Part shown: positions 3,975 through 37,947 of the stretch, piece after piece
Layout of the letters: every line of letters begins with the position of its first letter
How positions within the stretch are numbered: the first letter of the stretch is position 1
Virus record (IMG/VR): IMGVR_UViG_3300008262_000001
Length of the DNA stretch: 64,000 bases
Source of the DNA: a virus
Taxonomy: Duplodnaviria > Caudoviricetes
Strand: one strand, 5' to 3'
Program-made: the position numbers and the translations under genes
The notes under the pieces: model-generated
The model's database searches: none
The model's input: only the letters and a program-made list of their open reading frames with translations
What the model was told of the DNA's origin: nothing

Positions 3975-3981
3975 GTTGTTC

Positions 3982-3989
3982 TATATATC
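3982..3989 (-). promoter_or_regulatory. GATATATA putative late promoter (gp25-like gene)
   Basis: 7 nt upstream of ATG 3974. Confidence 0.6.
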
Positions 3990-22174: not shown

Positions 22175-22178
22175 ACTG

Positions 22179-22186
22179 TATATACC
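22179..22186 (-). promoter_or_regulatory. GGTATATA variant upstream of the baseplate operon
   Basis: 4 nt upstream of ATG 22174. Confidence 0.45.
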
Positions 22187-22194
22187 CCGATTGG

Positions 22195-22518
22195 TTATTC
22201 CGTTATTAAAACTACCTCACAAAATTCACATTCGAAAATCGTGGATATTTTTTGTTTTAATAAGGAAACAAAAGGGTCAGTGGGAGAATCGTAAACAACA
22301 ACTAAAGAGCAACCAGAAGAAACCTTAGATTTTGAGCTTAATATTTTTTTATGAAGCCATTCTTCAAAAATGTATTGCCTTATTTCATTCATGCTAGAAG
22401 GAGACAAGTTGTTTTGCTTAAACCAAGAATTTACATCAATCGGATAAACATCACAGCTTTGCAATTGGACAGTTTTGACTTTGTCCGCTTTAGTGACTAT
22501 AAATGATTTAGACAGCAC
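22195..22518 (-). CDS. Hypothetical protein
   Basis: 107-aa ORF packed in operon orientation. Confidence 0.55.
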   Translation of the reverse strand: MLSKSFIVTKADKVKTVQLQSCDVYPIDVNSWFKQNNLSPSSMNEIRQYIFEEWLHKKILSSKSKVSSGCSLVVVYDSPTDPFVSLLKQKISTIFECEFCEVVLITE

Positions 22519-22527
22519 TAGAAAAAA

Positions 22528-22692
22528 TTAATCTGTTTTTTTATTAAGATTCCTTTGCTCAGTTAAATTTCTCAAATGAATTAACTTACCAAGTGATCCA
22601 GATGAGCCGGATGTTTTTTTGTTGTTTTCTTTCTTCAGAAGACCCATCTCTTTGGCGAGTTTTCTTCTTTCCTTTCTATTAGGTAAGTTCAT
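22528..22692 (-). CDS. Small basic hypothetical protein
   Basis: Likely start ATG 22692 (MNLPNRKERRKLAKEMG...), overlapping the end of the Nudix gene. Confidence 0.5.
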   Translation of the reverse strand: MNLPNRKERRKLAKEMGLLKKENNKKTSGSSGSLGKLIHLRNLTEQRNLNKKTD

Positions 22693-23239
22693 TTTCCTTT
22701 GTTGTTTTATTGAAAAGATTTTTGAATGTTTTGATGAATAGTGTGCTAACCAAAGAATCCTCAAGATCTAATGCCTCATCCACAGAAATTAGTTCAAACT
22801 TTGAATCTTTCTCTGAACTAGATCCATCAGTGGTTTTTTCTTCAGAAACTAATCCCGTTATATTGACTGCAAAACAAGGATTAGAATTAAGGACTAATTT
22901 TGATGTGTATAATGTACCTAAGAAATTCCATCTTTTAAGATCGTCAACAGAAAAACCAGATTCTTCCATGAGCTCTCTTACTGCAGTTTGAAATATATTT
23001 TTGTCATCATCATCTTGCGATCCTGTGATCAACGTCTTAGCCATTCCTCCAGGTCTTTGATCTAAGACCTCACTTAGAACTCCGATTTGATCAGGAACGC
23101 CATCTTTGTCCAAGGTATAAGGCATAATGATAACACCAGGATTTATCTGTCTGATGAAAATTTTACCGTCTATCTCTACACTTTCGGTGTTTTTAGTCTT
23201 CCGAAGGGAGATCGTTTCCGCTTTTTCGAATATTTGCAT
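22679..23239 (-). CDS. Nudix hydrolase
   Basis: Nudix box GSQDDDDKNIFQTAVRELMEESGF. Confidence 0.85.
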   Translation of the reverse strand: MQIFEKAETISLRKTKNTESVEIDGKIFIRQINPGVIIMPYTLDKDGVPDQIGVLSEVLDQRPGGMAKTLITGSQDDDDKNIFQTAVRELMEESGFSVDDLKRWNFLGTLYTSKLVLNSNPCFAVNITGLVSEEKTTDGSSSEKDSKFELISVDEALDLEDSLVSTLFIKTFKNLFNKTTKENELT

Positions 23240-23795
23240 GGTTACCTTTATATATCTCTCGAATATTCTGTCTTAAACTGTCCTTAATGATCTCAATATC
23301 TAAATCATTAACAACAAATTCAATGATTTCTTTATCCGCATCCTCAAAAGACGTAGTGAGGATATTATAAAGGCTTTTAGTTGGAAGATTCAATTTGAGC
23401 TTAATCCCAACCTCTACCCAGTTAGGTTTTTGCTTCTCTAATAATGAAGTAATTGGATTTGAAGAAACAGTTACCACTGACGGTGTTTCAACCACCATGA
23501 CATTTCTTGCTCCAAGCGGTTTGGTTGAATTGATCGTGGGAGTGGTAGATTGTGGTAAAGAATTTAGTGTTTGCGCGGGAACAGGATCTATTTGAATCAT
23601 ATAATCATTCAAAAGAGCGTAGTTGATGCGAGTACCGTCTTTGAAATTGACCCAAATAACACCACTAGTTGGATCTTTGAACACGTCACTATATTCACAA
23701 ACAGTTCCATTATTGTCACCTTTGGTCCATTTATAAGCAAAGGGGCTCAATTCTTTATCAAGATGCTCAACATCAATTTCTTCTATATTTTCCAT
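23193..23795 (-). CDS. Hypothetical protein
   Basis: About 200 aa; likely start MENIEEIDV at 23795, directly after the stop of the upstream gene. Confidence 0.6.
   Translation of the reverse strand: MENIEEIDVEHLDKELSPFAYKWTKGDNNGTVCEYSDVFKDPTSGVIWVNFKDGTRINYALLNDYMIQIDPVPAQTLNSLPQSTTPTINSTKPLGARNVMVVETPSVVTVSSNPITSLLEKQKPNWVEVGIKLKLNLPTKSLYNILTTSFEDADKEIIEFVVNDLDIEIIKDSLRQNIREIYKGNHANIRKSGNDLPSED
23249..23256 (-). promoter_or_regulatory. GATATATA upstream of the Nudix gene
   Basis: 9 nt upstream of ATG 23239. Confidence 0.55.
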
Positions 23796-23796
23796 C

Positions 23797-24108
23797 TTAG
23801 GATTTTTTCTTATTATTTTTTTCAGAAGATTCCACATCCTCAATTATTTTTGTTTCAGTGTATCCATTAGCTCTTAAATACTCTATCCATGTAGGTAAGT
23901 CTTTTTGAGTTATCCAAGTATTTTTGTAGGTTTTGCCTCCAGAAATGCTGTTGATTACAAGTATATTATCCATCACTGGATCTTTATGCCTTGATATTTC
24001 TAATTTGGCTTTGCCAGTTGCCTTTGATAATACCATCTTATGACCTGATGTTATTTCCATAACTTTTATATTATAGATTACTTCTAGATTTTTGATTCGA
24101 GAATCCAA
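23797..24108 (-). CDS. Hypothetical protein
   Basis: 103-aa ORF in operon orientation; the true start may be the second Met. Confidence 0.55.
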   Translation of the reverse strand: MDSRIKNLEVIYNIKVMEITSGHKMVLSKATGKAKLEISRHKDPVMDNILVINSISGGKTYKNTWITQKDLPTWIEYLRANGYTETKIIEDVESSEKNNKKKS

Positions 24109-24120
24109 GAAAAAGAAGTT

Positions 24121-24828
24121 CTAAAGTAGTCCCCATTTTTCTAAGAATATTGGCTGAGATCCCGTCGTTAGCCTAAACATCTCAGTGTTATCAGATACAA
24201 CAGCCTCTGTTGTTTTACCTATGTTTTTGTCGTGATGTATAACTATGGAGTCAGTAACGAGTGCGTGTTTGAGTCCTTGTTGCATCAATGTCATCGCATA
24301 ATCATTATCGCAAAACCAGTGAAAAAATCTTTCATCCAAGTCACCAATGATATCATAAATTTCTCTTTTATGGACGATACACCATCCGGATAATTCCTTT
24401 CTAATATTGTGACCAAATCTAATTCCAGAGTGAGGATAGATTCCATACATAACTTGTGTCATTGGACAAATGGGAGAGAAAGAAATAACATCTGGATTTT
24501 TTTCGTGGCAATCAAGAATTGTAGAAAACCAGTTTTTTGTAAATTCTAAATCATTATTGCACAAGGCTACCCATTCAGAGGATCCGCTTTTTCTACCAAA
24601 ATTTAAGAATTTGTGATATCCATAAGGTAGAGGTGCAGATAAAGTTTGGATGTTGCAATTTTTATAGTTCCAAGTTACCCCTTCTTGTGATTCCACAACT
24701 ATTACATTGAAAATCTCTGAAGAGTTTTCTTCGGAGGAAAACAAAGTTTCTATACAGCGAGAAGTAAGAGATTTACAATAATCATCCTTAGCATAACTTA
24801 CAATTACAATATCGATTTTACTGTCCAC
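24121..24828 (-). CDS. Glycosyltransferase family 2
   Basis: IDIVIVSY, VIVVES, WVALCNNDLEF (DxD-like), IGDLDERFFHWFCDNDY. Confidence 0.85.
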   Translation of the reverse strand: MDSKIDIVIVSYAKDDYCKSLTSRCIETLFSSEENSSEIFNVIVVESQEGVTWNYKNCNIQTLSAPLPYGYHKFLNFGRKSGSSEWVALCNNDLEFTKNWFSTILDCHEKNPDVISFSPICPMTQVMYGIYPHSGIRFGHNIRKELSGWCIVHKREIYDIIGDLDERFFHWFCDNDYAMTLMQQGLKHALVTDSIVIHHDKNIGKTTEAVVSDNTEMFRLTTGSQPIFLEKWGLL

Positions 24829-24875
24829 TTACAAATCAGATTATAAAAACTTTAGAAGTTTTAAGGAGTAAAGTT

Positions 24876-25463
24876 TCAGGATCGGATTTTCGACTTTTCT
24901 CCAAGATATCCTCCATGGTGACGTTTAAAATAATCACAAGTGGTAAATTTTTTAGAACTCATGAGTTCAACTACTATTAAATCAGAAATTACCGACATGC
25001 AAGTAGTCGAAGTTGTTGGAGTTAATCCTAATGGACATATCTCATCAACAACCCCGAATTCAAAAACATCAGAACATTTTGTGTTTAGATACGGATTACT
25101 TTGTCCAGTTATTACAAAAATATGATTTCTGTTTCCGAGTTCGTGTACTAAAGAAATTAACTCTTGTATTTCTCTAGTTTTTCCAGAGTTTGTGAACATG
25201 ATAAGGACATCATTGGGCTGGATTACTCCGAGATCTCCGTGTTGTGCTTCTGAAGGGTGTAGAAAGACAGACGGAGTTCCTGTAGAAGATAGAGTTGTTG
25301 CTAATGTGTTAGAAATTTGTCCAGCTTTTCCCATTCCTGATGTAATTATCTTACTCTCTGGTACGAGCTGCCTTTTGATAGATTCGATGAATTCTGCAAG
25401 TCTATCGACTGGAATCCTTGAGATAGCAGATATTTCTTGCTTCAGTAGGGACTTAAGGTTCAT
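24876..25463 (-). CDS. kdsD: SIS-domain sugar-phosphate isomerase, KdsD/KpsF/GutQ (arabinose-5-phosphate isomerase)-like, no CBS domains
   Basis: TSGMGKAG, STGTPSVFLHPSEAQHGDLG, NSGKTREI, CPLGLTPTTST, HHGGYLG. Confidence 0.85.
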   Translation of the reverse strand: MNLKSLLKQEISAISRIPVDRLAEFIESIKRQLVPESKIITSGMGKAGQISNTLATTLSSTGTPSVFLHPSEAQHGDLGVIQPNDVLIMFTNSGKTREIQELISLVHELGNRNHIFVITGQSNPYLNTKCSDVFEFGVVDEICPLGLTPTTSTTCMSVISDLIVVELMSSKKFTTCDYFKRHHGGYLGEKSKIRS

Positions 25464-26471
25464 TTATTTAATTCTCTCGTTTACCATTTCTCTCAGAATT
25501 TCATCGAGAGACATTGAATATGTCCATCCTAGTTTTTCTTTTGCCTTTGTTGCATCTCCGATGAGCAAATCAACTTCAGATGGTCTAAAATATTTAGGAT
25601 CCACTTTAACCATAATTTCTCCTGTTTCTTTGTTTTTTCCAACTTCGTTTATTCCTGTGCCTTCCCATTCAATGTCAACATTTAGAATTCTTGCTGTAGT
25701 TTCAACAATAGATCGGATTGTATGTGTTTTACCTGTCGCAAGTACAAAATCTTCAGGTTGGTCTTGCTGCAACATTCTCCACATACCTTCTACGTATTCT
25801 TTTGCGTGACCTATATCCCTTTGTGATTCTAAATTTCCTAAAGAGAAACAATCAGTTTTTTTGTGGTACAGGATATCAACCAAGGAGTCAACTATTTTCT
25901 TCTCGACGAAATTTTCACCTCTCCTTGGAGACGTGTGATTGAAAAGAATTCCGTTACAAGCAAAAAGGTTATAAGCCTCTCTGTAATTTTTAATTATCCA
26001 AAATCCATAAAGCTTAGCTACACCATAAGGACTTCTAGGATAAAAAGGTGTTGTTTCTTTCTGAGGAATCTCTTGAACTTTGCCATAAAGTTCGGAGGTT
26101 GAAGCTTGGTACAGTTTGGTTTTTGGTGAGTGAGATCTGATAGCATCAAGTACATTCAAAGTACCTATTGCATCTACCTGACCTGTATAATACGGGATTT
26201 CGAAAGAAATCTTAACATGACTTTGTGCAGCTAAATTATAAAATTCATCAGGTTTGATCTCAGAAATTAATGTGCTTATAGAGACGGGATCAGTCACATC
26301 AGCGTAGTGCCAATAGAAATTGGGTTTATTTCGTAAGTGATCTATTCGTCTTGTGTTGAAAGAAGAAGATCTCCTAATTATTCCATGAACCTCGTAACCT
26401 TTTTCCAACAAAAGCTCTGCAAGGTAAGATCCATCCTGGCCATTGATTCCAGTTATTATAGACTTTTTCAC
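25464..26471 (-). CDS. gmd: GDP-mannose 4,6-dehydratase
   Basis: [75 protein letters not shown]. Confidence 0.97.
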
Positions 26472-27637
26472 TAGAGAATATTTTTTTCGGAGTTTACTAT
26501 TGATGAAATCAATTTAATCTCATCTATGGTGAGATTTTGGTGGTTTGGTAAATAGAAGCCCTTCTCGTGAATTATATCTGAGTTACCAGTTCCAAACTTT
26601 CTGTTTAGATTTGAAGCAAAAGGTTGTTTTGCCATTGATCCCGCTATAAGGGGTCTGACTTCTATATTTTTAGATTTAATCTTAGTGATTATTGAATCTC
26701 TTTCCGAATGTACCACAGGATAGGCAAAGTTTGAAATAAAATCACCAGGTCTTTGTTTGATATTTAGATGGTTTTCAGATATCAATTCAGAATACATTAA
26801 AAAATTTCTGTTCCTTATATCAGAGAAAGGATCGATTTTTCCAATTTGGTCTATCCCTATGAAAGCCTGCAAATCAGTAGATCTCACATTCAATCCAGGG
26901 AAATAAAATGTGTACATGCTTGTGAATGGATCGACGTTGTACTTTTCTCTGTATTCTTGTTTAAGATCGTCGTCCCAATCCCTGTCCCATCCATGATTTC
27001 TAATTGAAACTAAAAGATCGTGTATTTCCTTATCTTTAGTTGTGATCATCCCACCTTCTATTGTGCTGATATGGTGACCGTAATAGAAAGAAAAAAATGA
27101 CATTAAACCAAAAGAACCTAAGTATTGATTCTGAAACTTAGAACCTAAACTTTCGCAAACATCCTCCAATAAAATAACACCATGTTTTTCACACAACTCA
27201 GTTATTTTTTTCATATCAGGGACTAAGCCCAAGACTGAAACTAATATACAAGCTTCAGGTTTTTCTTCTATGAATATCTGTTCCAGTTTTTCTAAATCTA
27301 ATGATAAATCCTCAAGATTACAGTCACATAAAATAGGTTCAATTCCAAGGACTACTGGACTACTAAGATCAGTCGCCCAGGAAACGGAAGGAACCACAAC
27401 TTTTTTAATATTGTTTTTTATCTTAAGTGCAAGAAGTGATAATAAGATTGCAGATGATCCTGAGTTAATGAAACAACTTTTTAAATCATCTCCAAGGAAA
27501 GACGAAAAATTTTCCTGAAATTTAATTGTCAATGGACCTTTGGTTAGCTGTGGAATATCTTCTTGGGAAAGCCAAGCAACAAGATTTTGGATATCTTGTT
27601 TGGATATCGTATCTGAAACTAATTTTATATCTTTCAT
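26471..27637 (-). CDS. colD: PLP-dependent DegT/DnrJ-family enzyme, ColD-like GDP-4-keto-6-deoxymannose 3-dehydratase
   Basis: [10 protein letters not shown] and [15 protein letters not shown], with His where aminotransferases have the Schiff-base Lys. RNHGWDR lacks the Fe-S Cys motif of RfbH/E1. Adjacent to gmd. Confidence 0.7.
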
Positions 27638-28284
27638 TCTTTTTCTAGTAATATGCCATAGTCGATGTAATTGTTAGTAATTGACATCTTCCAACCCGGT
27701 AAAGAATATCTTACTAGATCATACCAATCTGTGTGATTACGAACACCTTCGACCATGATTATGTATTTGGTGGAAACTTCCCCCATGTTTCTCATCATTT
27801 TCACAGCCTTTTCAGAATTCAAGTGCATAACAACTGCTTGAGAATAAACAAGTTCTACCTTAGGTAGATCTGACACATCACCAGTTAAATCCCTAACAGA
27901 TACGTTTTTTGGGAATTCTAGGTCGTTTGGGATAAACTCTTTACCAAAATCTATTTGAGATTGCAAATAGTCTGCACCTGATACTTTGGTTTTCGGACAC
28001 AAAGTCATTAGATTTCTTAAATGGTAGCAAGCTCCGCATCCAAATTCAAAAACACTCTTAGGATTTTTTGTGTAAATTAAGGAATATAATTCTTTCCAAT
28101 TCGCAACTAAATTATCATGAAAAACTGGGATTCTATCCACTATTTCATAATTTCTTACAAAAAAATCGAACTTATCATTTTGAACCATCTCTTTGAGCTG
28201 GCCTGAGTATTCCGGTGTGTATTTTTCCCAAACGTACTCGTCATTTTGTTTGTCTAAATGCATGGCTTTATTTAATATATCCAA
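27634..28284 (-). CDS. Class I SAM-dependent methyltransferase
   Basis: SVFEFGCGACYHL motif I, VSGADY, VELVYSQAVVMHL. Confidence 0.8.
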   Translation of the reverse strand: MDILNKAMHLDKQNDEYVWEKYTPEYSGQLKEMVQNDKFDFFVRNYEIVDRIPVFHDNLVANWKELYSLIYTKNPKSVFEFGCGACYHLRNLMTLCPKTKVSGADYLQSQIDFGKEFIPNDLEFPKNVSVRDLTGDVSDLPKVELVYSQAVVMHLNSEKAVKMMRNMGEVSTKYIIMVEGVRNHTDWYDLVRYSLPGWKMSITNNYIDYGILLEKE

Positions 28285-28300
28285 GAAAATCTAGGAAGTT

Positions 28301-29053
28301 TCAAAGAGATATAAAATCAAGGTCTGGATTTAAGAGCAAAGAAAAATTAGATAAATTAGAATTCATTTTTACTAACAGGTCACACGTGGAAAGAAGATAA
28401 GCATCTATTATGACATCTTCTGCCATTCTGTATTTGTCCGGCATCTTTTTTTTAAAATTTGGTAGATCTTGATCATCAGTAACTGTTGAGCCACTCAAGT
28501 TTATTACATTAGGATATCTCTGTTTAAATAATTCAATGCTTACAGCTTCATCACAAGCTAAGTAGATACAATCAAAATTTGAATGTATTTTGTCAATAAT
28601 TTCAAAATATTTTTGTAATGGTGGACTTTCGTGGTGTGTACCTATGTCTGTTCCCCTTTTATGGACACCTAATATTTTTTTGCCAGCAAACATTTCCAAA
28701 TAAAGAGATAGGATTTTGGTACCAATCTCAGACTTTAATTTCAAATGTGTGTCTATTATTTCCTTTGCAATTTTTCTCTCTGTTTTATTTCCAAAATCAA
28801 AAGAATATCCATAAAAATTCCCACTGTCACCCCAAAATGTCCGTTTACCGTCTGTGATTATATCCTGTAAAAAAAATTCATTCCATTGATTGTCCTTTGA
28901 GTCAGAGTATGAGGAATTTCTCATATCAAAATAAATTTTATAATCTATTCCCAGTGTGAAATAATGTCTATGAACAGAAACAAATTGGATCACGAAAGAA
29001 AAAAAACCTCTCTCGCTTGAAGATTCTCCAGATTCTAAAATTAAAACTTTCAC
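28301..29053 (-). CDS. NodZ/GT23-like O-fucosyltransferase
   Basis: GFFSFV, ILGVHKRGTD, IYLACDE, DAYLLSTCDLLVKMNSNLS; GTG start. Confidence 0.75.
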   Translation of the reverse strand: MKVLILESGESSSERGFFSFVIQFVSVHRHYFTLGIDYKIYFDMRNSSYSDSKDNQWNEFFLQDIITDGKRTFWGDSGNFYGYSFDFGNKTERKIAKEIIDTHLKLKSEIGTKILSLYLEMFAGKKILGVHKRGTDIGTHHESPPLQKYFEIIDKIHSNFDCIYLACDEAVSIELFKQRYPNVINLSGSTVTDDQDLPNFKKKMPDKYRMAEDVIIDAYLLSTCDLLVKMNSNLSNFSLLLNPDLDFISL

Positions 29054-29055
29054 CT

Positions 29056-29067
29056 ATTTATATATAC
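29056..29067 (-). promoter_or_regulatory. GTATATATAAATA motif inside the glycan cluster (also contains TATAAATA)
   Basis: Intergenic, just upstream of GTG 29053. Confidence 0.45.
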
Positions 29068-29074
29068 TAATGTT

Positions 29075-29695
29075 TTATTCATTGTTGAACAAAAAATCAA
29101 TATTATTATTGATAATAGCAGATCTTATCCCATCTTGGTTTAATAGAGATAACATCTCTATTTTTTTGGCTATATAATTATCTCCTTCATCCAATATGCC
29201 TAATGTGTTATGTATATTGATCCAGTTTTTATTTATTTTTTTATTCTCATCTTCACAATTTATAGATAAAAATAGAGCTTTATCGATATCGGTTCTTCTA
29301 CTTATATGATCAATAAAAGAACACATTATTTCAATATTAGATTTTACTGGGCTAACTCCAAAGTGCGTTATAAAAACTTTGTATTCATTCGATTTTAAAC
29401 TTTCATGAAATCTTTTTGTTCTTCTAATATATTTTTCTTTTATAAAATCTAGATCATTAGGAAAGTCGTGCGGAAACCAGTCACCCCTTATTTTATTTCT
29501 TTTACTTGCATCAAATCCTTCAGAAAAATATTTATTAATATAAGCATCAATATTAGTTATTTCAAGATCAATAATCTCTAACATAGTTTGCGAACTCATT
29601 TGAGCCCAATCAAAAACCATTGTAGGTCTTTCTATTTTCAAGCGTTCCCTTATTATCCCAGCAGGATTACATCTCATACCTAATGATATTAGCAT
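29075..29695 (-). CDS. DUF1796-like (putative papain-like) protein
   Basis: N-terminal ISLGMRC...RPTMVFDW, FPHDF and KYIRRTKRF match my recollection of DUF1796. Confidence 0.6.
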   Translation of the reverse strand: MLISLGMRCNPAGIIRERLKIERPTMVFDWAQMSSQTMLEIIDLEITNIDAYINKYFSEGFDASKRNKIRGDWFPHDFPNDLDFIKEKYIRRTKRFHESLKSNEYKVFITHFGVSPVKSNIEIMCSFIDHISRRTDIDKALFLSINCEDENKKINKNWINIHNTLGILDEGDNYIAKKIEMLSLLNQDGIRSAIINNNIDFLFNNE

Positions 29696-29709
29696 ACTAT
29701 TAATATTTT

Positions 29710-30435
29710 TTAGCCACGATGTAGATATAATCTATCGGAAACTAGGTCCTTTATTAGAACGTATCCCATTGTTGTCAAAATTGAATGAATCTCAGATTCT
29801 ACACAGAATGAACCTTGCCAACCTCGGTTTTGTCCTTTGTTTAAAATAGTTTCGATGAATAATAATTTAGGACGTATCTCGCCAAATCCATTAATAACAT
29901 ATCCCTCCGCCCCTTCAACATCTATATGAGCGACATCAACATGGCCAATTCCTTTCTCGTTACAGAAACTCGAAACAGAAACTGAAGGAACTGTTATAGG
30001 ATAATTCTCTTGTATTATATGAGAATATATTTCTTTATACAAGGAAGTATGTTTCAAAATTGATCCCTGTCCTAAAGCATCACCCTCTACGAATGACTGG
30101 TAAAAATTTGTTTGTCCTGGATTTTCACAAACTGCAACAGGAACAAATTCTATATCAAATTTTGAAATGTATTTTTGTATAGAAATTATCCTAGCAGGAT
30201 CAGCTTCAAAGGAATACACGTTAGATCTTGGATATCTATGTTTGAGTCTAATAGAATCTCCCGCATCATAAGATCCAATATCAAAGATAACTTTAGGATC
30301 TATACCACACTCATCAATCCATTGTGCATTAAAACTGCTGTGCAATAATGGCACAGTAATTTTTGCTTGGTCTAATGCTTCATAAAGATCTTTGTCAAAA
30401 GAATCTCCGTCTATTATAGCGGGCGATATATTCAT
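29710..30435 (-). CDS. FkbM-family methyltransferase
   Basis: IFDIGSYDAG, VYSFEADP, VAVCENPG, HIDVEGAEGYVING. Confidence 0.85.
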   Translation of the reverse strand: MNISPAIIDGDSFDKDLYEALDQAKITVPLLHSSFNAQWIDECGIDPKVIFDIGSYDAGDSIRLKHRYPRSNVYSFEADPARIISIQKYISKFDIEFVPVAVCENPGQTNFYQSFVEGDALGQGSILKHTSLYKEIYSHIIQENYPITVPSVSVSSFCNEKGIGHVDVAHIDVEGAEGYVINGFGEIRPKLLFIETILNKGQNRGWQGSFCVESEIHSILTTMGYVLIKDLVSDRLYLHRG

Positions 30436-32057
30436 TGGATATTTTTTTTCTTTTCGAAAAGATATCCTTCAATCCAAACGTGGTCAATATCAGTATTGTC
30501 TAATATATCAAGAGCTTCGGAAATCGTAGAAAGAATAGATTTTCCTCTATTATTGAAGGATGTGTTTATTAGAATAGGTATTCCTGTTTTCTCAAAGAAT
30601 GATTTAACGAGATTATAACCGAAAGGGTTATCCTTAAAATTTAAAGTTTGTGCTCTTGCTGTCCCGTCAATATGGACTATCTCTTTTACTATATCAGACA
30701 CTTCCGGTCTAACCGTCGGATTGAAACTCATATAAGGAGAGGAAGTGAAGGACGTAAAATATTGGTCAGTGTATTCCTCTAAAATTGCGGGTGCTAAAGG
30801 TCTCCAATTTTCTCTATTTTTTATTTTGTTTAATTTGTCTTTAATCCCAGTGATGGAAGGAGAAGCAACAATACTTCTTCTTAAAAGAGCTCTTTCGCCT
30901 ACTTCGCCTCTTCCGTAAACAATACCTATGATTTTTCCATCACGAATCAATCCAGTAAGGAAATCTATCGAACATTCTTTTGCTGAATATTCAGATATTA
31001 GAGTCGGTAGATTATATCTATCTATTAAATCTATTCCGTTGAAAGCACATTCAATCTTATGTGTTGGGTTATTTTCATTTAACAGAAAACCTAAAGAAAG
31101 TCCGCAATCTCCAGGATTTGGTGGAACGTGCACAGGATATTCTATTTTATTTCTTAAATATTGATTAAATATTATATTCATGGCACCTCCACCAGATAAA
31201 CAAACAGGAACTTTGAATTTTTTTAAATACACCAATATTTTTTTATACACTAACAGGTTAAATACATGCTGAGATGTTGCTGCAACGTCTAGGGAATCTT
31301 CCCAATCTAAACTGTTTATATTTTTCAGCTCTAAGCCTATTTTTACACCTAACTCTTTCCTGTATCTATCGTCACAAGGCCCGTTATAATATTCCTCAAA
31401 AAATTCTATCCAATCTTCCCTAAGTTTACCGTATCCAGAAAGTCCCATAATTTTACCTGCAAGAGTTAAGTATGATTCGCTAATCTGGTAAGTGATTGAT
31501 AAATCATGAATTTCTGATCCTATATCGATTGGTGATATTTTTTTACTTATACAATTCAGGGGAATTGCTAAACATGTATAAGGATCACAGACATTCAAGT
31601 CCAGTTTTTCCAGATGCTTGATCCCATTTTTTCTGTCTGCAATGAAAAAATTGAAAGTTGACACATCACCATTGTCGTGACCTCCTGAATCGTATGTTGC
31701 AATTAACGATTCTGAAAATCCTGATGTATAAAAAGCTGTAGCTGCATGGGATAAATGATGTCCAATTTCTTTGAATTCAGTACAATTAAAGATCTCTTCT
31801 ACTGCACGAATTATTTTTTCACTACACTGACCATAAAGGCAGGTTGTGAATGTTGCAGTATTATTAAAATCATTCAAAAGGATATCCTTTACAGCCAAAA
31901 GAGTATCATAATAATTGGGATCTTTTTCTAACGAAAAATGTCTGATCCCATTGATCTTTTCTAGCTCGTAAGTATAATAGTCTCCAGTTTCTGTGACAAC
32001 AGAAATATTAGAATCGTGTGATCCGTAAAGTGAAAGAATCGAATTATTTAGTTGCAT
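30432..32057 (-). CDS. nodU: Carbamoyltransferase, NodU/CmcH family
   Basis: SHDSNI, HHLSHAATAFYTSGF, AGKIMGLSGYG, NPGDCGLSLG, GRGEVGERALLRRSI, RENWRPLAPAIL, HIDGTARAQT, PILINTSFN. Confidence 0.9.
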   Translation of the reverse strand: MQLNNSILSLYGSHDSNISVVTETGDYYTYELEKINGIRHFSLEKDPNYYDTLLAVKDILLNDFNNTATFTTCLYGQCSEKIIRAVEEIFNCTEFKEIGHHLSHAATAFYTSGFSESLIATYDSGGHDNGDVSTFNFFIADRKNGIKHLEKLDLNVCDPYTCLAIPLNCISKKISPIDIGSEIHDLSITYQISESYLTLAGKIMGLSGYGKLREDWIEFFEEYYNGPCDDRYRKELGVKIGLELKNINSLDWEDSLDVAATSQHVFNLLVYKKILVYLKKFKVPVCLSGGGAMNIIFNQYLRNKIEYPVHVPPNPGDCGLSLGFLLNENNPTHKIECAFNGIDLIDRYNLPTLISEYSAKECSIDFLTGLIRDGKIIGIVYGRGEVGERALLRRSIVASPSITGIKDKLNKIKNRENWRPLAPAILEEYTDQYFTSFTSSPYMSFNPTVRPEVSDIVKEIVHIDGTARAQTLNFKDNPFGYNLVKSFFEKTGIPILINTSFNNRGKSILSTISEALDILDNTDIDHVWIEGYLFEKKKNIQ

Positions 32058-32835
32058 ATTTTTTAATTGTGTTTTCGACTCTTTTTTCGAAAGGCTGATC
32101 TATTAAAGCGGATTGATAATTCTTTTCAATGCTCTCTAGCATAGATTGGTATTTATCATGATTTAAAGAAGTTAAAATTTGATCTAGTTCTTCTATCGTT
32201 TCAAATTTTATTATACCTTTCTCTTCGTAAAAATCCCCAAGATTTGGACATCCCTTATAAATAGGAACGGTTTTAGTCATAAAACAATCAACGATTTTTT
32301 CAGTGAACCAGTTTTTCATAAACTCATTTTCTATTACGATTGAAAACATATAGTTTTCTAGCCCTATCATTTTATTGGAGATTTCATTAAATCCCCTCCC
32401 GTATAAATCAAATTTTCCTTTTAGTAGTTCTATTATTTTCATCCTTACTTTATGCCCGACAGCAAAGTTTTTGTCAGATGTTATGAAAGAAACAGTTTTG
32501 AATTTGTCAAAGTCCGTTTTGATCTCTTTAATCCACGTGCCCCCAAAATAATTTAGTACAGAATTATCTAAATTTGTTAAAATAGATTCGTAATAACTAA
32601 GAATTAAATTATACTTCCTTCCATTATTCAAAAGATACTTCTCTACTGAATAATTGTTTACTGATGGGGGTTCTGCTTGCACTGCAACTTTGAATATAGA
32701 TGGATCATTAATCCAGATAGGGTCCGAAATGGGATCTATTTGTATCCCCACATTGGATTCATATAAACCGAAATATTTATCCGGGTCTACCCCCCATCCT
32801 TTGAGTACTTCTCTTTGAACTATTGGTTTTATCAT
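32044..32835 (-). CDS. GT10-like alpha-1,3/4-fucosyltransferase
   Basis: YMFSIVIENEFMKNWFTEKIVDCFMTKTVPIYKG is the GT10 core motif. Confidence 0.8.
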   Translation of the reverse strand: MIKPIVQREVLKGWGVDPDKYFGLYESNVGIQIDPISDPIWINDPSIFKVAVQAEPPSVNNYSVEKYLLNNGRKYNLILSYYESILTNLDNSVLNYFGGTWIKEIKTDFDKFKTVSFITSDKNFAVGHKVRMKIIELLKGKFDLYGRGFNEISNKMIGLENYMFSIVIENEFMKNWFTEKIVDCFMTKTVPIYKGCPNLGDFYEEKGIIKFETIEELDQILTSLNHDKYQSMLESIEKNYQSALIDQPFEKRVENTIKKYATK

Positions 32836-33770
32836 ATTAGATTAAGATCTTTTTTTGCGTTATTGATTATATCTAAGCTAGCTGCTCCGTTACACCATCT
32901 CTTGCCATTGTGATCATTCTGCTCCGAATAAGTCGACTGAGGGGTATTTAATCTTTCAGTGTTAAAGAAAAGATGAGAGAAAAAATTCCATCTATAATAT
33001 GCCCAATCGGCATATCCCTTTGGTGGAGCTGATAAATTATCAGCTACTGCTTTTCCTGAACCCACCCCCCCAAAATGTGCGATTTTTTTGCCACAATCAA
33101 AATTTAAATTCGACTCAAATCCGTTAAACTTAGATCCTTTCAAATCTATACCCCCATAGTTAGTAGTGTCCAGAAACCCTATTTTTCCACCATTTGATAT
33201 TATAGAGTGTGTGACAGGATCAAAGAAATCAAGTACTCTGTGGCCAGTTGGAGAAGCCCATCCTCCGCACATTCTTGTAAAAGTTTCAAAATCATAAGAC
33301 GGTATTTTAAGTGTATTGACCCCCATTAAATAGGTTGAAACACAATCAGGCGTATTATCGAGGCCTTTTACTCCACTTAAATTGTTTTTGTAAGGTCTCG
33401 GAGATCCGATTATATCATACCCATTTTGGAGCATTCCAATGATATCGCTTATTGATTCATCTTTAAAAAAACAGTCAGAATCTATATGTATAACATATTG
33501 ATTTGTATGTAAATCTCCTTTAAGTACAGAAGCGAATGCTAAGGCAGTACCCTGGTGTCCTGAAGACCATTTTTCTTTAGCAGATATATTGGTGTCCCAA
33601 TTAATTAAAATGTTATTGGGATGATTAATTATTTCACCGGCTTCAAGAAAATCCCTTGATGTCCCGATAATATGAATCTTGGTATCGTGATGTTTATGAA
33701 AAGATTCTAAGCATACAGATAAAATTTTTCCACAATTGAAAGCCTCAGTAAAAACAAATGTATTTTGCAT
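32832..33770 (-). CDS. Putative GT-A fold glycosyltransferase
   Basis: YVIHIDSDCFF (DxD); located within the GT cluster. Confidence 0.6.
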   Translation of the reverse strand: MQNTFVFTEAFNCGKILSVCLESFHKHHDTKIHIIGTSRDFLEAGEIINHPNNILINWDTNISAKEKWSSGHQGTALAFASVLKGDLHTNQYVIHIDSDCFFKDESISDIIGMLQNGYDIIGSPRPYKNNLSGVKGLDNTPDCVSTYLMGVNTLKIPSYDFETFTRMCGGWASPTGHRVLDFFDPVTHSIISNGGKIGFLDTTNYGGIDLKGSKFNGFESNLNFDCGKKIAHFGGVGSGKAVADNLSAPPKGYADWAYYRWNFFSHLFFNTERLNTPQSTYSEQNDHNGKRWCNGAASLDIINNAKKDLNLI

Positions 33771-34387
33771 TATTTTTTTAAAAAATTATATTCAACAGTT
33801 TTCATCTCAATATCAGAGAAACCATCTCTCTGCCATGCTATAGGGGGGATAAATCCATAACAAGGTAATTTAGTTTGTATTTTTGATAAATGAACATCGA
33901 CTTCACTATTAAAAATATTAGGAGTATCAAATTCCTCTATCAAACAATCTAAAGCTGATTTTTTTACCAGATAACAATGGGTGGTATATGTTTTTTGTAA
34001 TCTGTGTATTTTTTGTGAAACCATTTGCGGGGCTATGCCGTTGTGATTTCCTCCAAAATATAAAAGGTTCCAATCTTGAGGTACTGATTGGATCTCGTTT
34101 AGAAATATCTCTATGAAATCAGGGGAAAAAACGACATCATCTTCAGTAATCATAAAAATTGAGCCTTCTACATTTTTTAAATATCTATATAAGTTCAAAT
34201 GAGACATGACACAACCAACGTGTCCTGGTTTTATAGTAGACTTAACGTTCAATTCGTGACCATCAACCCCGGTAAAAAATTCAAAATCTAAATTAAATTT
34301 TTTGAACTCCTGAAATGCTTCTGTCCTCCTATCGGACCTTCTTTCTAAGTTGACACAATAAATGTTATCTATACCAGGAATTTTCAT
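33770..34387 (-). CDS. Glycosyltransferase family 25
   Basis: YCVNLERRSDRR, FFTGVDG, GCVMSHL, ITEDDV, YTTHCYLV. Confidence 0.85.
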   Translation of the reverse strand: MKIPGIDNIYCVNLERRSDRRTEAFQEFKKFNLDFEFFTGVDGHELNVKSTIKPGHVGCVMSHLNLYRYLKNVEGSIFMITEDDVVFSPDFIEIFLNEIQSVPQDWNLLYFGGNHNGIAPQMVSQKIHRLQKTYTTHCYLVKKSALDCLIEEFDTPNIFNSEVDVHLSKIQTKLPCYGFIPPIAWQRDGFSDIEMKTVEYNFLKK

Positions 34388-34388
34388 T

Positions 34389-35129
34389 TTATAATATAAT
34401 CATTTCTTTTCGATAAACCTGTCTCCAACCTGTACCTGAATAGCCTCTACCTACCCAATTATCCGGAGCATATATTTTTTTCGAAGGATTCTTTGATAGG
34501 TATGAACCCCACCAAGAAAAACTAGAATTAGCTATAATAAAATTTGAACACAAAGACATCTTAAATAAATCGATAAATTCATCAGTTTCTTCCGAGTATA
34601 AAAAATTAGAGGGAAATTGCTCTTTACACCAAGGGATATCGTCAGAAAATACCATAAAGTTCTTAGAAATATTCTTTAGATTCGATATTGCAGTATTGTA
34701 GTAACTTAAACTTGGAACTGGGTGATGTAAAGGAAAATTTAAATAATCTCCTCTTCTAACATGTATTGCAGTAAGTCCATCAAAGTCTGTCAAATAAACC
34801 TTAGATTTTATGACATCATTAGGATCAAATAAATCTACTATTTCCTTTTTATGACAAGAAAAATAGTTCTCGTTCTGGAAATATCCTATCAAATCAATAT
34901 TGTCAATCTGTGGGATTTGGGAATAACTAAAAGGATCCTTTTCCCTAAATTGAGTTAGCACTTGTGATACTTTGCCTGTCTTTATCGGTTTATCTAAATG
35001 CCTGTTATATTTCCACTCAGGAAAAATATAATCGTAGTTATATTTCATGCAGTGGGAAAAAACAGTCGAAATTTGGAAAAATTGATTCCCCATCTTACCA
35101 TGTTTTCCCAAGTTGCTAAATGTGATCAT
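34389..35129 (-). CDS. GT11 alpha-1,2-fucosyl(/colitosyl)transferase
   Basis: GKMGNQFFQ, GYFQNENYF, AIHVRRGDY, FSDDIPWCK, IIANSSFSWWGSYL. Confidence 0.9.
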   Translation of the reverse strand: MITFSNLGKHGKMGNQFFQISTVFSHCMKYNYDYIFPEWKYNRHLDKPIKTGKVSQVLTQFREKDPFSYSQIPQIDNIDLIGYFQNENYFSCHKKEIVDLFDPNDVIKSKVYLTDFDGLTAIHVRRGDYLNFPLHHPVPSLSYYNTAISNLKNISKNFMVFSDDIPWCKEQFPSNFLYSEETDEFIDLFKMSLCSNFIIANSSFSWWGSYLSKNPSKKIYAPDNWVGRGYSGTGWRQVYRKEMIIL

Positions 35130-36033
35130 TGTTTAGATAGAATTCTAATACTGTTTTTATACTTGATTTTAAATCAGTAAATTCAAAATTAGGAGCAATT
35201 TGTTTTAATCTCGAGTTGGATCCATCCTTTCTAAAAATCCCGTCCGGCCCTTGACAATTGAACGAAATTTTTATCTTATTACAAGAAATCTCTTCAACTA
35301 TATCCGAATATTGCTTAAGTGTCAGATTATAGTCAGGTGTAAAATTAAAGGATTCTGTTATATCATTTTCAATGCAAAAATGGATTATCCTAGCCAAATC
35401 ATCATACGTTACAAATTGTCTGAGTACTTTTCCTGATCCAAACATCTCGAGATTTTTTTCACCAGATAAAATAGATTTTGCTGATTTATAAATTAATGAG
35501 GTCAAGAAATGCGTTTTGTCTGGATCATATGTTTCTTCGTTCCCGAAAAGATTACAAGGAATAATATAATTATACTGAGAAGAATGTTTTAAATTATAAA
35601 GTTGTGTCATTTCTGCTAGAAATCTTTTCGATAGTGCGTATCCTCGATTGGTTTTCTCAGGATCTCCGGAAAGAATATCTTCTTCTAAAATAGGATAATA
35701 TGGACTGATAGCTGGGTATACACATGTAGATAATATAGAAGTTAATCTCGGAATCTGTAATTCTATACATGCCCTAAAAACGTTCGTATTGATTAGGATA
35801 TTTTCATAAAAATATTCGAAAGGGTGTTCAATGTTGCTCTTGATACCACCAACTTTCGAAGCTAGATGCACAACTCTATATGGGTTTTTAGATTTAAAAT
35901 ATTTTAATGTAGACTCAAAATCTAAAAGATTTAGTTCCTTTTTTCCCTCTATGAATGTAGCATCTGGCAAAAGTCGATAAAGGCTTTTTCCTAAATGTGA
36001 GGTTCCGCCAGTAACCAATATTTTATTTCTCAT
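35116..36033 (-). CDS. fcl: GDP-L-fucose synthase / ColC-like epimerase-reductase
   Basis: ILVTGG, HLASKVGGIKSN, ILSTCVYP, GYALSKR, PCNLFG, FGSGKVLRQF. Fcl and ColC cannot be separated by eye. Confidence 0.85.
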   Translation of the reverse strand: MRNKILVTGGTSHLGKSLYRLLPDATFIEGKKELNLLDFESTLKYFKSKNPYRVVHLASKVGGIKSNIEHPFEYFYENILINTNVFRACIELQIPRLTSILSTCVYPAISPYYPILEEDILSGDPEKTNRGYALSKRFLAEMTQLYNLKHSSQYNYIIPCNLFGNEETYDPDKTHFLTSLIYKSAKSILSGEKNLEMFGSGKVLRQFVTYDDLARIIHFCIENDITESFNFTPDYNLTLKQYSDIVEEISCNKIKISFNCQGPDGIFRKDGSNSRLKQIAPNFEFTDLKSSIKTVLEFYLNNDHI

Positions 36034-37153
36034 CCGTAACTAATTTTTCTATTGTTATATTGTAAAGCTCCTTAGCTATTTTGAGATAATGTTCACTTCC
36101 TGGTCTACATGATGCAAATAACTGGTATATGCGTTGCTCAAATCTTTCATATGGATTTTTTCCCCACCCAGGTGGATGCCAAAGATGGTAAAGATCAATT
36201 TTGGGATTTTCAAGTGATGTGAAATGATTAAGCTTTTCAACCTTATCCCAGAAAAATTTATCCTCAATAGAATATCCCCAGAAAAAATGAGGATCAAATC
36301 CGCCTACTCTATCGAAAAGATCTCTAGTAAGAGCAATTGATCCTCCAGGAGCTCCATAGACACCTTCTCTGAAATTTGATGTGTTTTTTGTGATTGGTGA
36401 TAAATCTCCTGTTGTAAAATATTCTTTAGTTGAATCTTCGTCCAAATAATTTACCTTTCTACCAGAAAATGCCTGGACAGCTTGGTTTTTTGATAGCTCA
36501 TTTAATAATGAACTATAGAAATTATCGGGAACTAATAGATCGCAATCGTGAAAATGGACATACTGAGACTGAGAAATGGCAACACCCAAATTATGACAGA
36601 TACATTTATTAAATATATTACCATTAGAATTAAGCCAAACATAATGAAAATTTGCAAGATTGGAAAACAAATCTTTATTGAAAATTGGAGCTTTAGAATT
36701 TTCAATAATTACAAATCCTATTTTAATATCTAATTTATCAGCAGAATCTATCAAAGAATTAAGTGTTTTTTCGAGATGTAGCCACCGCCCTCTAAAAGGT
36801 ATTATAGTTACTAAATCATAATTCTCTACCAATCTTGGAATACTTACATTTTTATAAGCGTTTAATACTTCAAGATTTTTTTCGACTGCTAAATCGCTTA
36901 TGTTAAATATATTTGTTTTAGGTAAGGGTTTTAAAAAAGGGAGATTATCATCTTCCCCTTTAGTAGTACTTAAATACAAAAGTTGATTAAAATATTGGGT
37001 TACTGTAGAATTTATCACTACGTTTATTTTTTCATTCGTAAAGTCAATTTCATTTTTATCTGCAACGTTATTCAGATTCTTACTTGGTATAGGTTTGGAC
37101 CTGTTGACGATTCTCCTTTTACCCTCCCTGGTGATTCTTTGTCCGTTATTCAT
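36023..37153 (-). CDS. Glycosyltransferase GT2/GT7-C (galactosyltransferase-like)
   Basis: IIPFRGRWLHL, FNKCICHNLG, HFHDCDLL, VGGFDPHFFWGYSIED, YHLWH. Confidence 0.8.
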   Translation of the reverse strand: MNNGQRITREGKRRIVNRSKPIPSKNLNNVADKNEIDFTNEKINVVINSTVTQYFNQLLYLSTTKGEDDNLPFLKPLPKTNIFNISDLAVEKNLEVLNAYKNVSIPRLVENYDLVTIIPFRGRWLHLEKTLNSLIDSADKLDIKIGFVIIENSKAPIFNKDLFSNLANFHYVWLNSNGNIFNKCICHNLGVAISQSQYVHFHDCDLLVPDNFYSSLLNELSKNQAVQAFSGRKVNYLDEDSTKEYFTTGDLSPITKNTSNFREGVYGAPGGSIALTRDLFDRVGGFDPHFFWGYSIEDKFFWDKVEKLNHFTSLENPKIDLYHLWHPPGWGKNPYERFEQRIYQLFASCRPGSEHYLKIAKELYNITIEKLVTDEK

Positions 37154-37947
37154 ATTAGAGAAGGAGTACTTTTTTTTCCAACTTCCGCTCCTTTAATCCT
37201 TTCAACCAGAATCGCCTGATTTAAAGAACTGTATTGATTGAATAGCCTTTCGTTAGTTGGCATATTTCTGACATCTTTACCGAAATGACTTAGATGTGCA
37301 GCTTCGTAAGGAATTCTGTCCATAGATTCATCAGTTCTTCCTAATAAAAATTTAATAGTTTCTGTTGCCGCTTTATCTTCCCAGCCATATTTAAAAAAAT
37401 TCTCATTGTATCCGCCAAAAGTTTCCCAGAACCAGTTTCTGTTATAAACAAGAATAGCACCGAATCCACATCCGCGAGTCATTGATCTAAATTTGAATAC
37501 AGGGTCTCTGGGTCCATTTCCCTGCGTCCTAAAATAATTGAAATCTCTGTTTCTCAACCACACTGATGTTGGTGCTTCTGTATTACACCAATAATACGTT
37601 TCTGCTCCAGCGGCAAAGTTTCCCTGGAATTCAGATATTTTTTGAAAGTAATCTTTTTCAAAAACAAAGTCAGAATCCATTAAAACTAAGAGATCCCCTG
37701 TCGCCTCTTTCGCACCGACATTTCTACACCAGCTCAAATTGAAACCTCTATTCTGAGGATCCTTAATAGGTATATGCTTATAAAAAGGATTACCAACCTT
37801 GTAGAAATTATTATCTAAGGCCTGTTCAACAACAATGACCTCATAATCCTTAAAAGACTGTTCTTGTATACATCTTAAACATTCATTGAAGTTCCTGGTT
37901 CTTAAACCATCATTGCCTCCTGTAGGTAAAACAATAGATAATCTCAT
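37150..37947 (-). CDS. Glycosyltransferase GT2/GT7-C
   Basis: VIVVEQ, FNLSWCRNVG, LMDSDFVF, GGYNENFFKYGWED. Confidence 0.8.
   Translation of the reverse strand: MRLSIVLPTGGNDGLRTRNFNECLRCIQEQSFKDYEVIVVEQALDNNFYKVGNPFYKHIPIKDPQNRGFNLSWCRNVGAKEATGDLLVLMDSDFVFEKDYFQKISEFQGNFAAGAETYYWCNTEAPTSVWLRNRDFNYFRTQGNGPRDPVFKFRSMTRGCGFGAILVYNRNWFWETFGGYNENFFKYGWEDKAATETIKFLLGRTDESMDRIPYEAAHLSHFGKDVRNMPTNERLFNQYSSLNQAILVERIKGAEVGKKSTPSLI

Follow-up and report, generated by a model that had tools for sequence, protein, structure and literature searches.

Does a phage encode the means to make colitose? The question is raised by a stretch of DNA of 64,000 nucleotides (IMG/VR virus record IMGVR_UViG_3300008262_000001; Duplodnaviria, Caudoviricetes), here called the window, in which a gene for GDP-mannose 4,6-dehydratase (Gmd) overlaps a gene for a protein resembling the sugar 3-dehydratase ColD, and a gene of the Fcl family of epimerase-reductases lies 7.5 kb upstream of the latter. 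A first-pass annotation of the window had read these genes as an apparently complete pathway to GDP-L-colitose. Colitose is a rare, strongly antigenic sugar found in the O-antigens of E. coli O55/O111, Vibrio cholerae O139, Salmonella and Yersinia. We propose that the three phage enzymes would together convert GDP-mannose into a GDP-linked 3,6-dideoxyhexose, and that this sugar is probably colitose. The argument turns on the following three genes.

25464-26471, minus strand: gmd, GDP-mannose 4,6-dehydratase, 335 amino acids, GTG start (TIGR01472, Pfam GDP_Man_Dehyd)
26471-27637, minus strand: predicted ColD-like, pyridoxamine 5'-phosphate (PMP)-dependent sugar 3-dehydratase, 388 amino acids, of the DegT/DnrJ/EryC1 family (Pfam PF01041, 205.6 bits)
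35116-36033, minus strand: Fcl/GMER-family epimerase-reductase, candidate GDP-colitose (and GDP-fucose) synthase, 305 amino acids (NF047922, PDB match, AlphaFold2 model)

The gmd product scores 509.2 bits on TIGR01472, for which the curated cut-off is 415, matches Pfam GDP_Man_Dehyd at E 2.9e-139 and is 56% identical to E. coli Gmd; the E. coli reference proteins were taken from annotated O55 and O157 records. The DegT-family gene does stand next to gmd, as had been noted at first pass: its TAG stop and the GTG start of gmd share one G, a 1-nt overlap.

In the DegT-family protein the position of the lysine that would bind pyridoxal 5'-phosphate (PLP) is occupied by His188, encoded by CAC at 27076-27074 and followed by a CAT codon, giving a His-His pair. 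HMMER alignments to PDB chains place this residue in the column of His188 of ColD, which reads Asn in the H188N entry 3b8x and Lys in the H188K entry 2r0t; that the residue number is the same in the phage protein and in E. coli ColD is a coincidence. The Cys segment of E1 (3bcx), WGRDCYCAPGCDNTC, corresponds in the phage protein to a segment without Cys that carries the motif HGWDRD. Five RfbH orthologues, fetched from genomes using the curated RfbH model, have the same Cys-rich segment (WGRDCxCxPG...TC), and the phage protein has no Cys there. Its score on the RfbH model NF011936 is 179 bits against a cut-off of 423, which leaves it outside E1/RfbH. The first-pass annotation had pointed to His instead of Lys at the PLP position and to HGWDR instead of the RfbH/E1 Cys cluster, and both descriptions are borne out.

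A search of all PDB sequences with the ColD-like protein returns E. coli O55:H7 ColD as the best four matches, with E values from 1e-49 (2gms) to 2e-48, followed by E1 (E 4e-31) and perosamine synthase (E 2e-27). Its fold agrees: for an AlphaFold2 model with a predicted local distance difference test score (pLDDT) of 97.4, the twelve best Foldseek matches in the PDB are all ColD chains, at template modelling (TM) scores of 0.85-0.87. Residues invariant in E. coli ColD and the phage clade include W87, D159, E162, S183, H188, H215-G216-W217, R219, N250 and R328. Arg219, Arg331 and Asn248 of ColD, residues with presumed roles in that enzyme, were examined for conservation.

In ColD, the 3-hydroxyl group is removed by way of a PMP Schiff base with the active-site His as acid/base, the resulting enamine is hydrolysed, and glutamate recharges the cofactor (PMC8987622); E1 and SpnQ, unlike ColD, require an iron-sulfur (Fe-S) cluster and a reductase (PMC8987622). 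By its sequence the phage enzyme fits the ColD mode of action, and we consider it likely that it carries out a ColD-type 3-dehydration of a GDP-4-keto-6-deoxyhexose.

To place the protein within its family, we drew on a HMMER search of 1.84 billion cluster representatives, which yielded 558 relatives at E <= 1e-30. The full-length members of the top 150 relatives went into an alignment with the phage sequences, E. coli ColD and, as outgroups, two Lys-type proteins of E. coli. His occupies the catalytic column in 121 of the 124 full-length aligned sequences, none of which (0/124) has at least three Cys in the region of the E1 cluster, and D159, S183, N250 and R328 are almost invariant across the alignment. 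A FastTree tree of 131 rows was built from the aligned rows together with E. coli ColD, the five RfbH proteins, the O157 perosamine synthase (Per), ArnB and WecE. One split in this tree, with a Shimodaira-Hasegawa-like support of 97, separates the five RfbH/E1 proteins, Per, ArnB and WecE from the 123 other rows, which hold both E. coli ColD and the phage clade and are of the His type except for one that keeps Lys. The alignment with ColD, perosamine synthase and RfbH that the first-pass annotation had proposed therefore comes out on the side of ColD, which is the best solved match both by sequence and by fold, and the family branches apart from E1 and Per. Within this one family, on phylogenetic grounds, the phage protein and E. 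coli ColD are remote from each other.

Several points weigh against the proposed reading. Identity between the phage protein and E. coli ColD is just 30%, and true E1 orthologues are as similar to the latter (29-31%); pairwise similarity alone is therefore indecisive. A blastn search with the ColD-like gene found no match in E. coli genomes. In the tree, E. coli ColD lies in a basal subclade of 12 rows and the phage protein in a different subclade of 47, and the structural margin to ColD is modest, E1 and aminotransferases coming next in Foldseek at TM 0.79-0.86. Ser187, a feature of ColD, is Gly at position 187 of the phage protein. Of the 124 aligned sequences, 75 have Gly at that position, 37 have Ser and 8 have Ala, and according to a preprint Ser187 is not conserved across characterised dehydratases (10.1101/2021.09.04.459008). 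About half of the nearest bacterial relatives have no gmd nearby. Finally, GDP-heptose is the substrate of a ColD-type enzyme of C. jejuni (PMC10680097), and the sugar therefore does not follow from the family alone.

Genomic context suggests a GDP-linked substrate. Besides the overlap with gmd in the window itself, a gmd gene lies within 8 kb of the ColD-like gene in 36 of the 80 nearest bacterial relatives and is directly adjacent to it in 22.

Two further arrangements were seen. Flavobacterium and Opitutae relatives without gmd within 8 kb have a conserved cassette of a short-chain dehydrogenase/reductase (~262 amino acids), a glycosyltransferase (GT) of family GT2 and the ColD-like protein (L026:6379-9161, L035:6359-9155 and L019:6379-9161). 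On a 65-kb phage-like contig (L114:6001-10055), Fcl-like, Gmd-like and GT11 genes accompany a DegT protein of 451 amino acids that combines an HH pair with an E1-like Cys-rich insert (WGRACYCNS...), a combination suggestive of an Fe-S-type 3-dehydratase among GDP-sugar genes.

Removal of the 3-hydroxyl group would leave C5 and C4 to be dealt with, and the candidate for these steps is the Fcl-like protein. It scores 171 bits on NF047922, the GDP-L-fucose synthase model, under the cut-off of 500. In the PDB it comes closest to human GDP-fucose synthase (E 4e-41), a match that, like that of the ColD-like protein to ColD, is much too strong to be due to chance. Its AlphaFold2 model (pLDDT 94.9) matches the human enzyme (4b8w) at TM 0.91 and the E. 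coli enzyme at 0.88. The protein retains the equivalents of S107, C109, Y136, K140 and H179, which make up the Ser-Tyr-Lys triad and the Cys/His epimerisation pair. Its dinucleotide-binding motif at residues 9-15 reads GGTSHLG and departs from the canonical GxxGxxG. The middle Gly is lost in all 13 members of the close lineage (59-100% identity), where the variants are GGTSHLG, GGTSHLA, GGTSNLS and GGTSNLA, i.e. GGTS[HN]L[GAS]; GGxGxxG is kept in 95 of 107 more distant Fcl-like relatives. This loss, which may alter cofactor binding, speaks against the assignment, but the changed motif is itself conserved and is therefore evidence against decay.

The Fcl-like protein is about as far from ColC of E. 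coli O55 (28% identity) as from E. coli Fcl (26%), and ColC and Fcl share 39%. In a tree of the Fcl family, which included one ColC reference and in which one upstream frame, on a very long branch, was unusable, the phage protein falls into a third clade (34 rows, support 100), apart from both E. coli ColC and canonical Fcl; this too counts against a ColC assignment. Two members of the E. coli ColD subclade were on contigs too short to supply additional ColC sequences for comparison. The third clade also contains megaphage homologues and many metagenomic proteins, and its members adjoin either gmd alone (L113) or gmd with a 3-dehydratase (L114, L115). No other Fcl- or ColC-like gene is present in the window. 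Of the label Fcl/ColC-like given at first pass, membership of the Fcl family stands, with all catalytic residues in place, and orthology with E. coli ColC does not. Because the enzyme belongs to a third clade, has an unusual cofactor motif and is not a ColC orthologue, we infer, rather than read off, its ColC function and with it the final step of the pathway; by sequence the protein is an Fcl-like epimerase/reductase.

How much does the missing orthology matter? Many bacteria, and cyanophage ACG-2014f as well, have a canonical Fcl as the reductase beside the ColD-like gene, and the C4-reductases of C. jejuni that act on GDP-4-keto-sugars in 6-deoxy pathways also accept 3-deoxy substrates (PMC10680097). 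It is therefore plausible, by analogy, that one Fcl-type enzyme completes both fucose and colitose.

We propose that the pathway begins with conversion of host GDP-mannose to GDP-4-keto-6-deoxy-D-mannose by Gmd, a step assigned from homology above the curated cut-off. The genes manB, manC and gmm are absent from the 64-kb window, so that either the host or another part of the phage genome would have to supply GDP-mannose. In the second step, the ColD-like enzyme, with PMP as cofactor and His188 as acid/base, would remove the 3-hydroxyl group to generate GDP-4-keto-3,6-dideoxy-D-mannose. L-Glutamate would recharge the cofactor as in ColD, and an Fe-S reductase partner should not be needed. The active-site signature, together with the fold, the family tree and the coupling of the gene to gmd, is what suggests this step. 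In the third step, the Fcl-family enzyme would epimerise C5 and reduce C4 to yield GDP-L-colitose, and it probably also converts the Gmd product to GDP-L-fucose. Taking the three assignments together, we favour GDP-L-colitose as the predicted end product of the trio, with fair confidence, and GDP-L-fucose is probably made alongside it.

Where would these sugars go? Three transferase families that use donors of the GDP-L-fucose type are encoded within the same array, among other genes for building and modifying a glycan.

24876-25463, minus strand: single-domain SIS sugar-phosphate isomerase of the arabinose-5-phosphate isomerase type (KpsF/GutQ, 147.5 bits)
27634-28284, minus strand: class I S-adenosylmethionine (SAM) methyltransferase (Methyltransf_25, E 1.1e-5; TIGR03587 pseudaminic-acid-associated methylase, 36.6 bits)
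28301-29053, minus strand: candidate NodZ/FUT8-like (GT23-type) transferase, weak (NodZ 26.0 bits, cut-off 28.3; FUT8_N_cat 18.9, also below cut-off)
29710-30435, minus strand: FkbM-family methyltransferase (Pfam Methyltransf_21, E 1.8e-10)
30432-32057, minus strand: NodU/Nol-type carbamoyltransferase (Carbam_trans_C, E 2.9e-52; NodU, 158 bits; Nol-like phrog_1601, E 8.7e-99)
32044-32835, minus strand: GT10-family (fucosyltransferase-type) transferase (Pfam Glyco_transf_10, 31.7 bits, cut-off 23.9)
32832-33770, minus strand: weak GT2-like gene (Pfam Glycos_transf_2, 21.1 bits, below cut-off)
33770-34387, minus strand: GT25 gene (Glyco_transf_25, E 7.6e-17)
34389-35129, minus strand: GT11-family transferase (Pfam Glyco_transf_11, PF01531, 74.6 bits, cut-off 23.9, E 1.1e-20)
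36023-37153 and 37150-37947, minus strand: two GT2-family transferases upstream of the Fcl-like gene (Glyco_tranf_2_2 and Glycos_transf_2, both over their cut-offs)

The GT11, GT10 and NodZ-type genes named in the first-pass annotation are all in place, the NodZ/FUT8 match being weak. Family GT11 comprises alpha-1,2-fucosyltransferases and colitosyltransferases. In the window, the GT11 gene overlaps the Fcl-like gene by 14 nt, and its product is 35% identical over 166 amino acids to that of the GT11 gene in the E. coli O55 O-antigen cluster; a sequence search gave no solved relative for it. We propose that the GT11, GT10 and NodZ-like transferases would add the L-6-deoxyhexoses to a glycan made by the nearby GT2 and GT25 enzymes, and that the methyl- and carbamoyltransferases would trim it; the acceptor could be virion proteins, a lipid-linked intermediate of the host or another molecule. 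The NodZ-like gene, a DUF1796 gene, the FkbM methyltransferase and the NodU/Nol-type carbamoyltransferase stand in a row (28301-32057), a set reminiscent of rhizobial Nod factors with their fucosyl, methyl and carbamoyl groups. The SIS isomerase, whose best PDB match is 3etn (E 2e-57) and which also matches the arabinose 5-phosphate isomerase family phrog_5670, is without CBS domains and begins right after the gmd stop codon. It is a hint that the phage glycan contains a sugar of the 3-deoxy-D-manno-octulosonic acid (Kdo) type and that the host belongs to the Bacteroidota.

The alternative that survives best leaves the first two steps as they are and changes the last: the ColD-like enzyme makes GDP-4-keto-3,6-dideoxymannose, and the end sugar is not colitose but another C4/C5 stereoisomer or a methylated derivative. 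In C. jejuni, distinct reductases do lead from the same ColD-type product to distinct 3,6-dideoxy isomers (PMC10680097), and the phage Fcl-like enzyme belongs to a clade of its own in which no characterised member calibrates the stereochemical outcome. Against a different stereoisomer, the Cys/His epimerisation pair of GDP-fucose synthase is intact in the phage protein, its best fold match is a bifunctional fucose synthase (TM 0.91) rather than the reductase-only Rmd (TM 0.82), and the GT10, GT11 and NodZ-like families point to L-fucose-shaped donors. The case for methylation comes from the class I methyltransferase, which is translationally coupled to the ColD-like gene through an ATGA overlap at the ColD-like start and is kept beside that gene in relatives (L003-L006, 77-80% identity). 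This methyltransferase (27634-28284) is without informative relatives, solved structures included, a point against this reading. We regard this alternative as unlikely, yet deserving of weight.

A second alternative is that the Fcl-like enzyme serves GDP-fucose only, or is impaired by its altered motif, so that the ColD product is completed by the host or left unfinished. The absence of the middle Gly from the whole close lineage invites this reading, but GGTSHL[GA] is conserved in 11 of the 13 members, and the protein is 59-77% identical between lineage members with every catalytic residue kept, which argues for a working enzyme. Similarly, the 7.5 kb that separate the Fcl-like gene from the ColD-like gene, its place beside GT11 and the occurrence of clade relatives with gmd alone and no dehydratase (L113) would suit a fucose-only function, whereas in megaphage relatives the Fcl-like gene overlaps the ColD-like gene, and the window offers no second Fcl- or ColC-like gene for the purpose. 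We consider this explanation improbable.

Less probable still is that the substrate is GDP-heptose. The precedent is C. jejuni, in which a Gmd-like 4,6-dehydratase, a PLP/glutamate-dependent 3-dehydratase and Fcl-like reductases act on GDP-heptose (PMC10680097), and the SIS-domain isomerase directly after gmd might be taken for a heptose enzyme. That isomerase matches arabinose-5-phosphate isomerases (3etn, KpsF/GutQ) and not the heptose isomerase GmhA, however; the cluster showed no gene for a heptose kinase, a phosphatase or a guanylyltransferase; the phage Gmd is above the curated gmd cut-off and close to E. coli Gmd; and the heptose reductases of C. jejuni are poorer fold matches to the Fcl-like protein than are fucose synthases. 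The remaining idea, that the DegT-family protein is, despite its His, an aminotransferase giving GDP-perosamine or a related amino sugar, has in its favour the fold and substrate class shared with perosamine synthase and the match to that enzyme at E 2e-27, and we dismiss it as very improbable in view of the replacement of the Schiff-base Lys by His in the phage protein and nearly all aligned members, the position of Per, ArnB and WecE outside the ColD-like family, and the lack of transaminase activity of ColD and E1 under comparable conditions (PMC8987622).

The proposed GDP-L-colitose pathway would belong to a large phage. Among the products of the window, which has a G+C content of ~34%, are a baseplate wedge protein, a major head protein and a head maturation protease. 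For the head protein, identity to the counterparts in Lak megaphages and in an uncultured 462-kb phage is 42-44%, and its remoter matches are in phages of Tenacibaculum, Chryseobacterium and Flavobacterium; the ColD-like protein of the window is also recorded on a 316-kb contig, and the sequence occurs in lake and other freshwater metagenomes of several studies. On the strength of these matches, the 316-kb contig and the freshwater sources, the window is from a large freshwater phage whose host is probably a member of the Bacteroidota.

The sugar-transfer genes form a continuous minus-strand array of ~15 kb, from ~39307 to 24121, that is flanked by tail and head genes and has overlapping or abutting ends at most junctions. 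A scan of 22000-41500 for sigma-70 promoters and terminators found such sites to be no commoner than in shuffled sequence. Elsewhere, the motif GATATATAG occurs at four sites in the window against 0.7 expected (3981-3989, 54368-54376, 57726-57734 and 58449-58457, all on the minus strand); the sites are near structural genes, and none precedes the glycan cluster.

Membrane-spanning segments were found in none of the 25 proteins encoded at 20321-40727 of the window (19-residue Kyte-Doolittle windows >= 1.6), and the glycan cluster contains no flippase, polymerase or priming transferase. Because this soluble enzyme set lies between head and tail modules and includes none of those three components, we raise, tentatively, the possibility of self-contained virion glycosylation, in which a methylated and carbamoylated colitose/fucose glycan would be built directly on the capsid or tail proteins of a jumbo phage. 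Chloroviruses and mimiviruses have comparable virus-encoded virion glycosylation, and 3,6-dideoxyhexoses are known mainly from bacterial O-antigens.

Is the cassette peculiar to this phage? The 10.6-kb region had no megablast match in 50,697 phage records. The flanking structural genes recur in three IMG/VR contigs of 120-149 kb, which have the methyltransferase, ColD-like, Gmd and SIS proteins at 58-79% identity, with the Fcl-like gene upstream at 68%, so that the Gmd, ColD-like and Fcl-like trio is kept. Two megaphage contigs of 587 and 656 kb, with gp32 and other phage genes, encode Gmd, GT10, GT2, GT25, GT10, GT11, Fcl-like and ColD-like proteins in a row, and in both the Fcl-like gene overlaps the ColD-like gene. 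At the protein level, 60 of the 50,697 deposited phage records match the ColD-like protein, and 54 of these 60 are Synechococcus phages. In cyanophage ACG-2014f (NC_026927.1, 160958-164075), gmd, fcl and a DegT gene are consecutive, the first two encoding proteins 65% and 49% identical to E. coli Gmd and Fcl, respectively, and the third a His-type protein that reads SFYFGHHMTTIEGG. In S-CAM7 (KU686212.1, 162097-165951) the order is gmd, fcl, His-type DegT and GT11, with a GT25 gene nearby downstream, and the deposited names are 'GDP-mannose 4,6-dehydratase', 'GDP-L-fucose synthetase', 'putative CDP-4-keto-6-deoxy-D-glucose-3-dehydrase' and 'glycosyltransferase family 11'; PHROGs labels the ColD-like family 'aminotransferase'. 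The names given to such cyanophage proteins ('CDP-4-keto-6-deoxy-D-glucose-3-dehydrase', 'aminotransferase', 'hypothetical protein') pass over what is likely a GDP-colitose function.

Among the papers listed by a full-text search on colitose and phage, none reports a phage-encoded colitose pathway, the giant-virus and jumbo-phage literature that we searched does not mention colitose, and a search for cyanophages and 3-dehydratases found no paper combining both. The statement made at first pass, that no phage colitose pathway was known to have been described, thus holds for the literature searched, but the cassette itself is already present, partly annotated, in deposited cyanophage genomes. 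For cyanophage S-SCSM1, phage-borne gmd, fcl, GT11 and NodZ were published as a GDP-fucose route (PMC9602691). For the moraphages, which are large, freshwater, Lak-related and predicted to have Bacteroidota hosts, a 2025 paper lists four core glycosyltransferase families and no sugar-nucleotide pathway (PMC12619734).

Set beside known systems, the phage trio is most like the GDP-L-colitose pathway of E. coli O55:H7 (Gmd, ColD/WbdK and ColC/WbdJ), with which it shares the three enzyme families, His for Lys, the absence of an Fe-S motif, the ColD fold as best structural match and a GT11 transferase in the same array. It differs in its low identity to ColD (30%) and ColC (28%), its other Fcl clade with the altered Gly motif, and Gly187; moreover, the window is without manB, manC, wzx and wzy, and the genes sit between head and tail modules instead of in an O-antigen locus. 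Cyanophages S-CAM7 and ACG-2014f share gmd, fcl and a His-type DegT gene, and S-CAM7 also GT11 and GT25, but the cyanophage reductase is of the canonical Fcl type (49% identity to that of E. coli) and their DegT proteins are 29-32% identical to that of the window. E1/RfbH/DdhC enzymes are likewise PMP-dependent 3-dehydratases of the DegT fold with His replacing Lys; E1, however, carries a [2Fe-2S] Cys cluster, absent from the phage enzyme, and depends on the reductase E3, and RfbH falls outside the ColD-like family. The GDP-3,6-dideoxyheptose pathway of C. jejuni (HS:5, HS:11) has the same succession of 4,6-dehydratase, PLP/glutamate-dependent 3-dehydratase, C5 epimerisation and C4 reduction (PMC10680097), but uses a heptose substrate, for whose activation no genes were seen in the phage cluster, and a separate C5-epimerase and reductase.

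The proposed pathway is known chemistry in a new carrier, and the cassette occurs widely in public phage genomes, where part of it is annotated. Because the chemistry is that of textbooks and the cassette is common in aquatic phages, the gain lies in annotation and phage glycobiology and not in a new mechanism. If the reading is true, it would correct a recurrent mis-annotation of phage genes as 'aminotransferase' or 'CDP-sugar 3-dehydrase', and the phage enzymes, which are short, soluble and predicted to need no Fe-S partner, could serve as tools for GDP-colitose synthesis. Should large aquatic phages indeed make colitose, 3,6-dideoxy sugars would enter the repertoire of virus-encoded glycans, with a bearing on how phages mask or mark their virions or the hosts that they infect.

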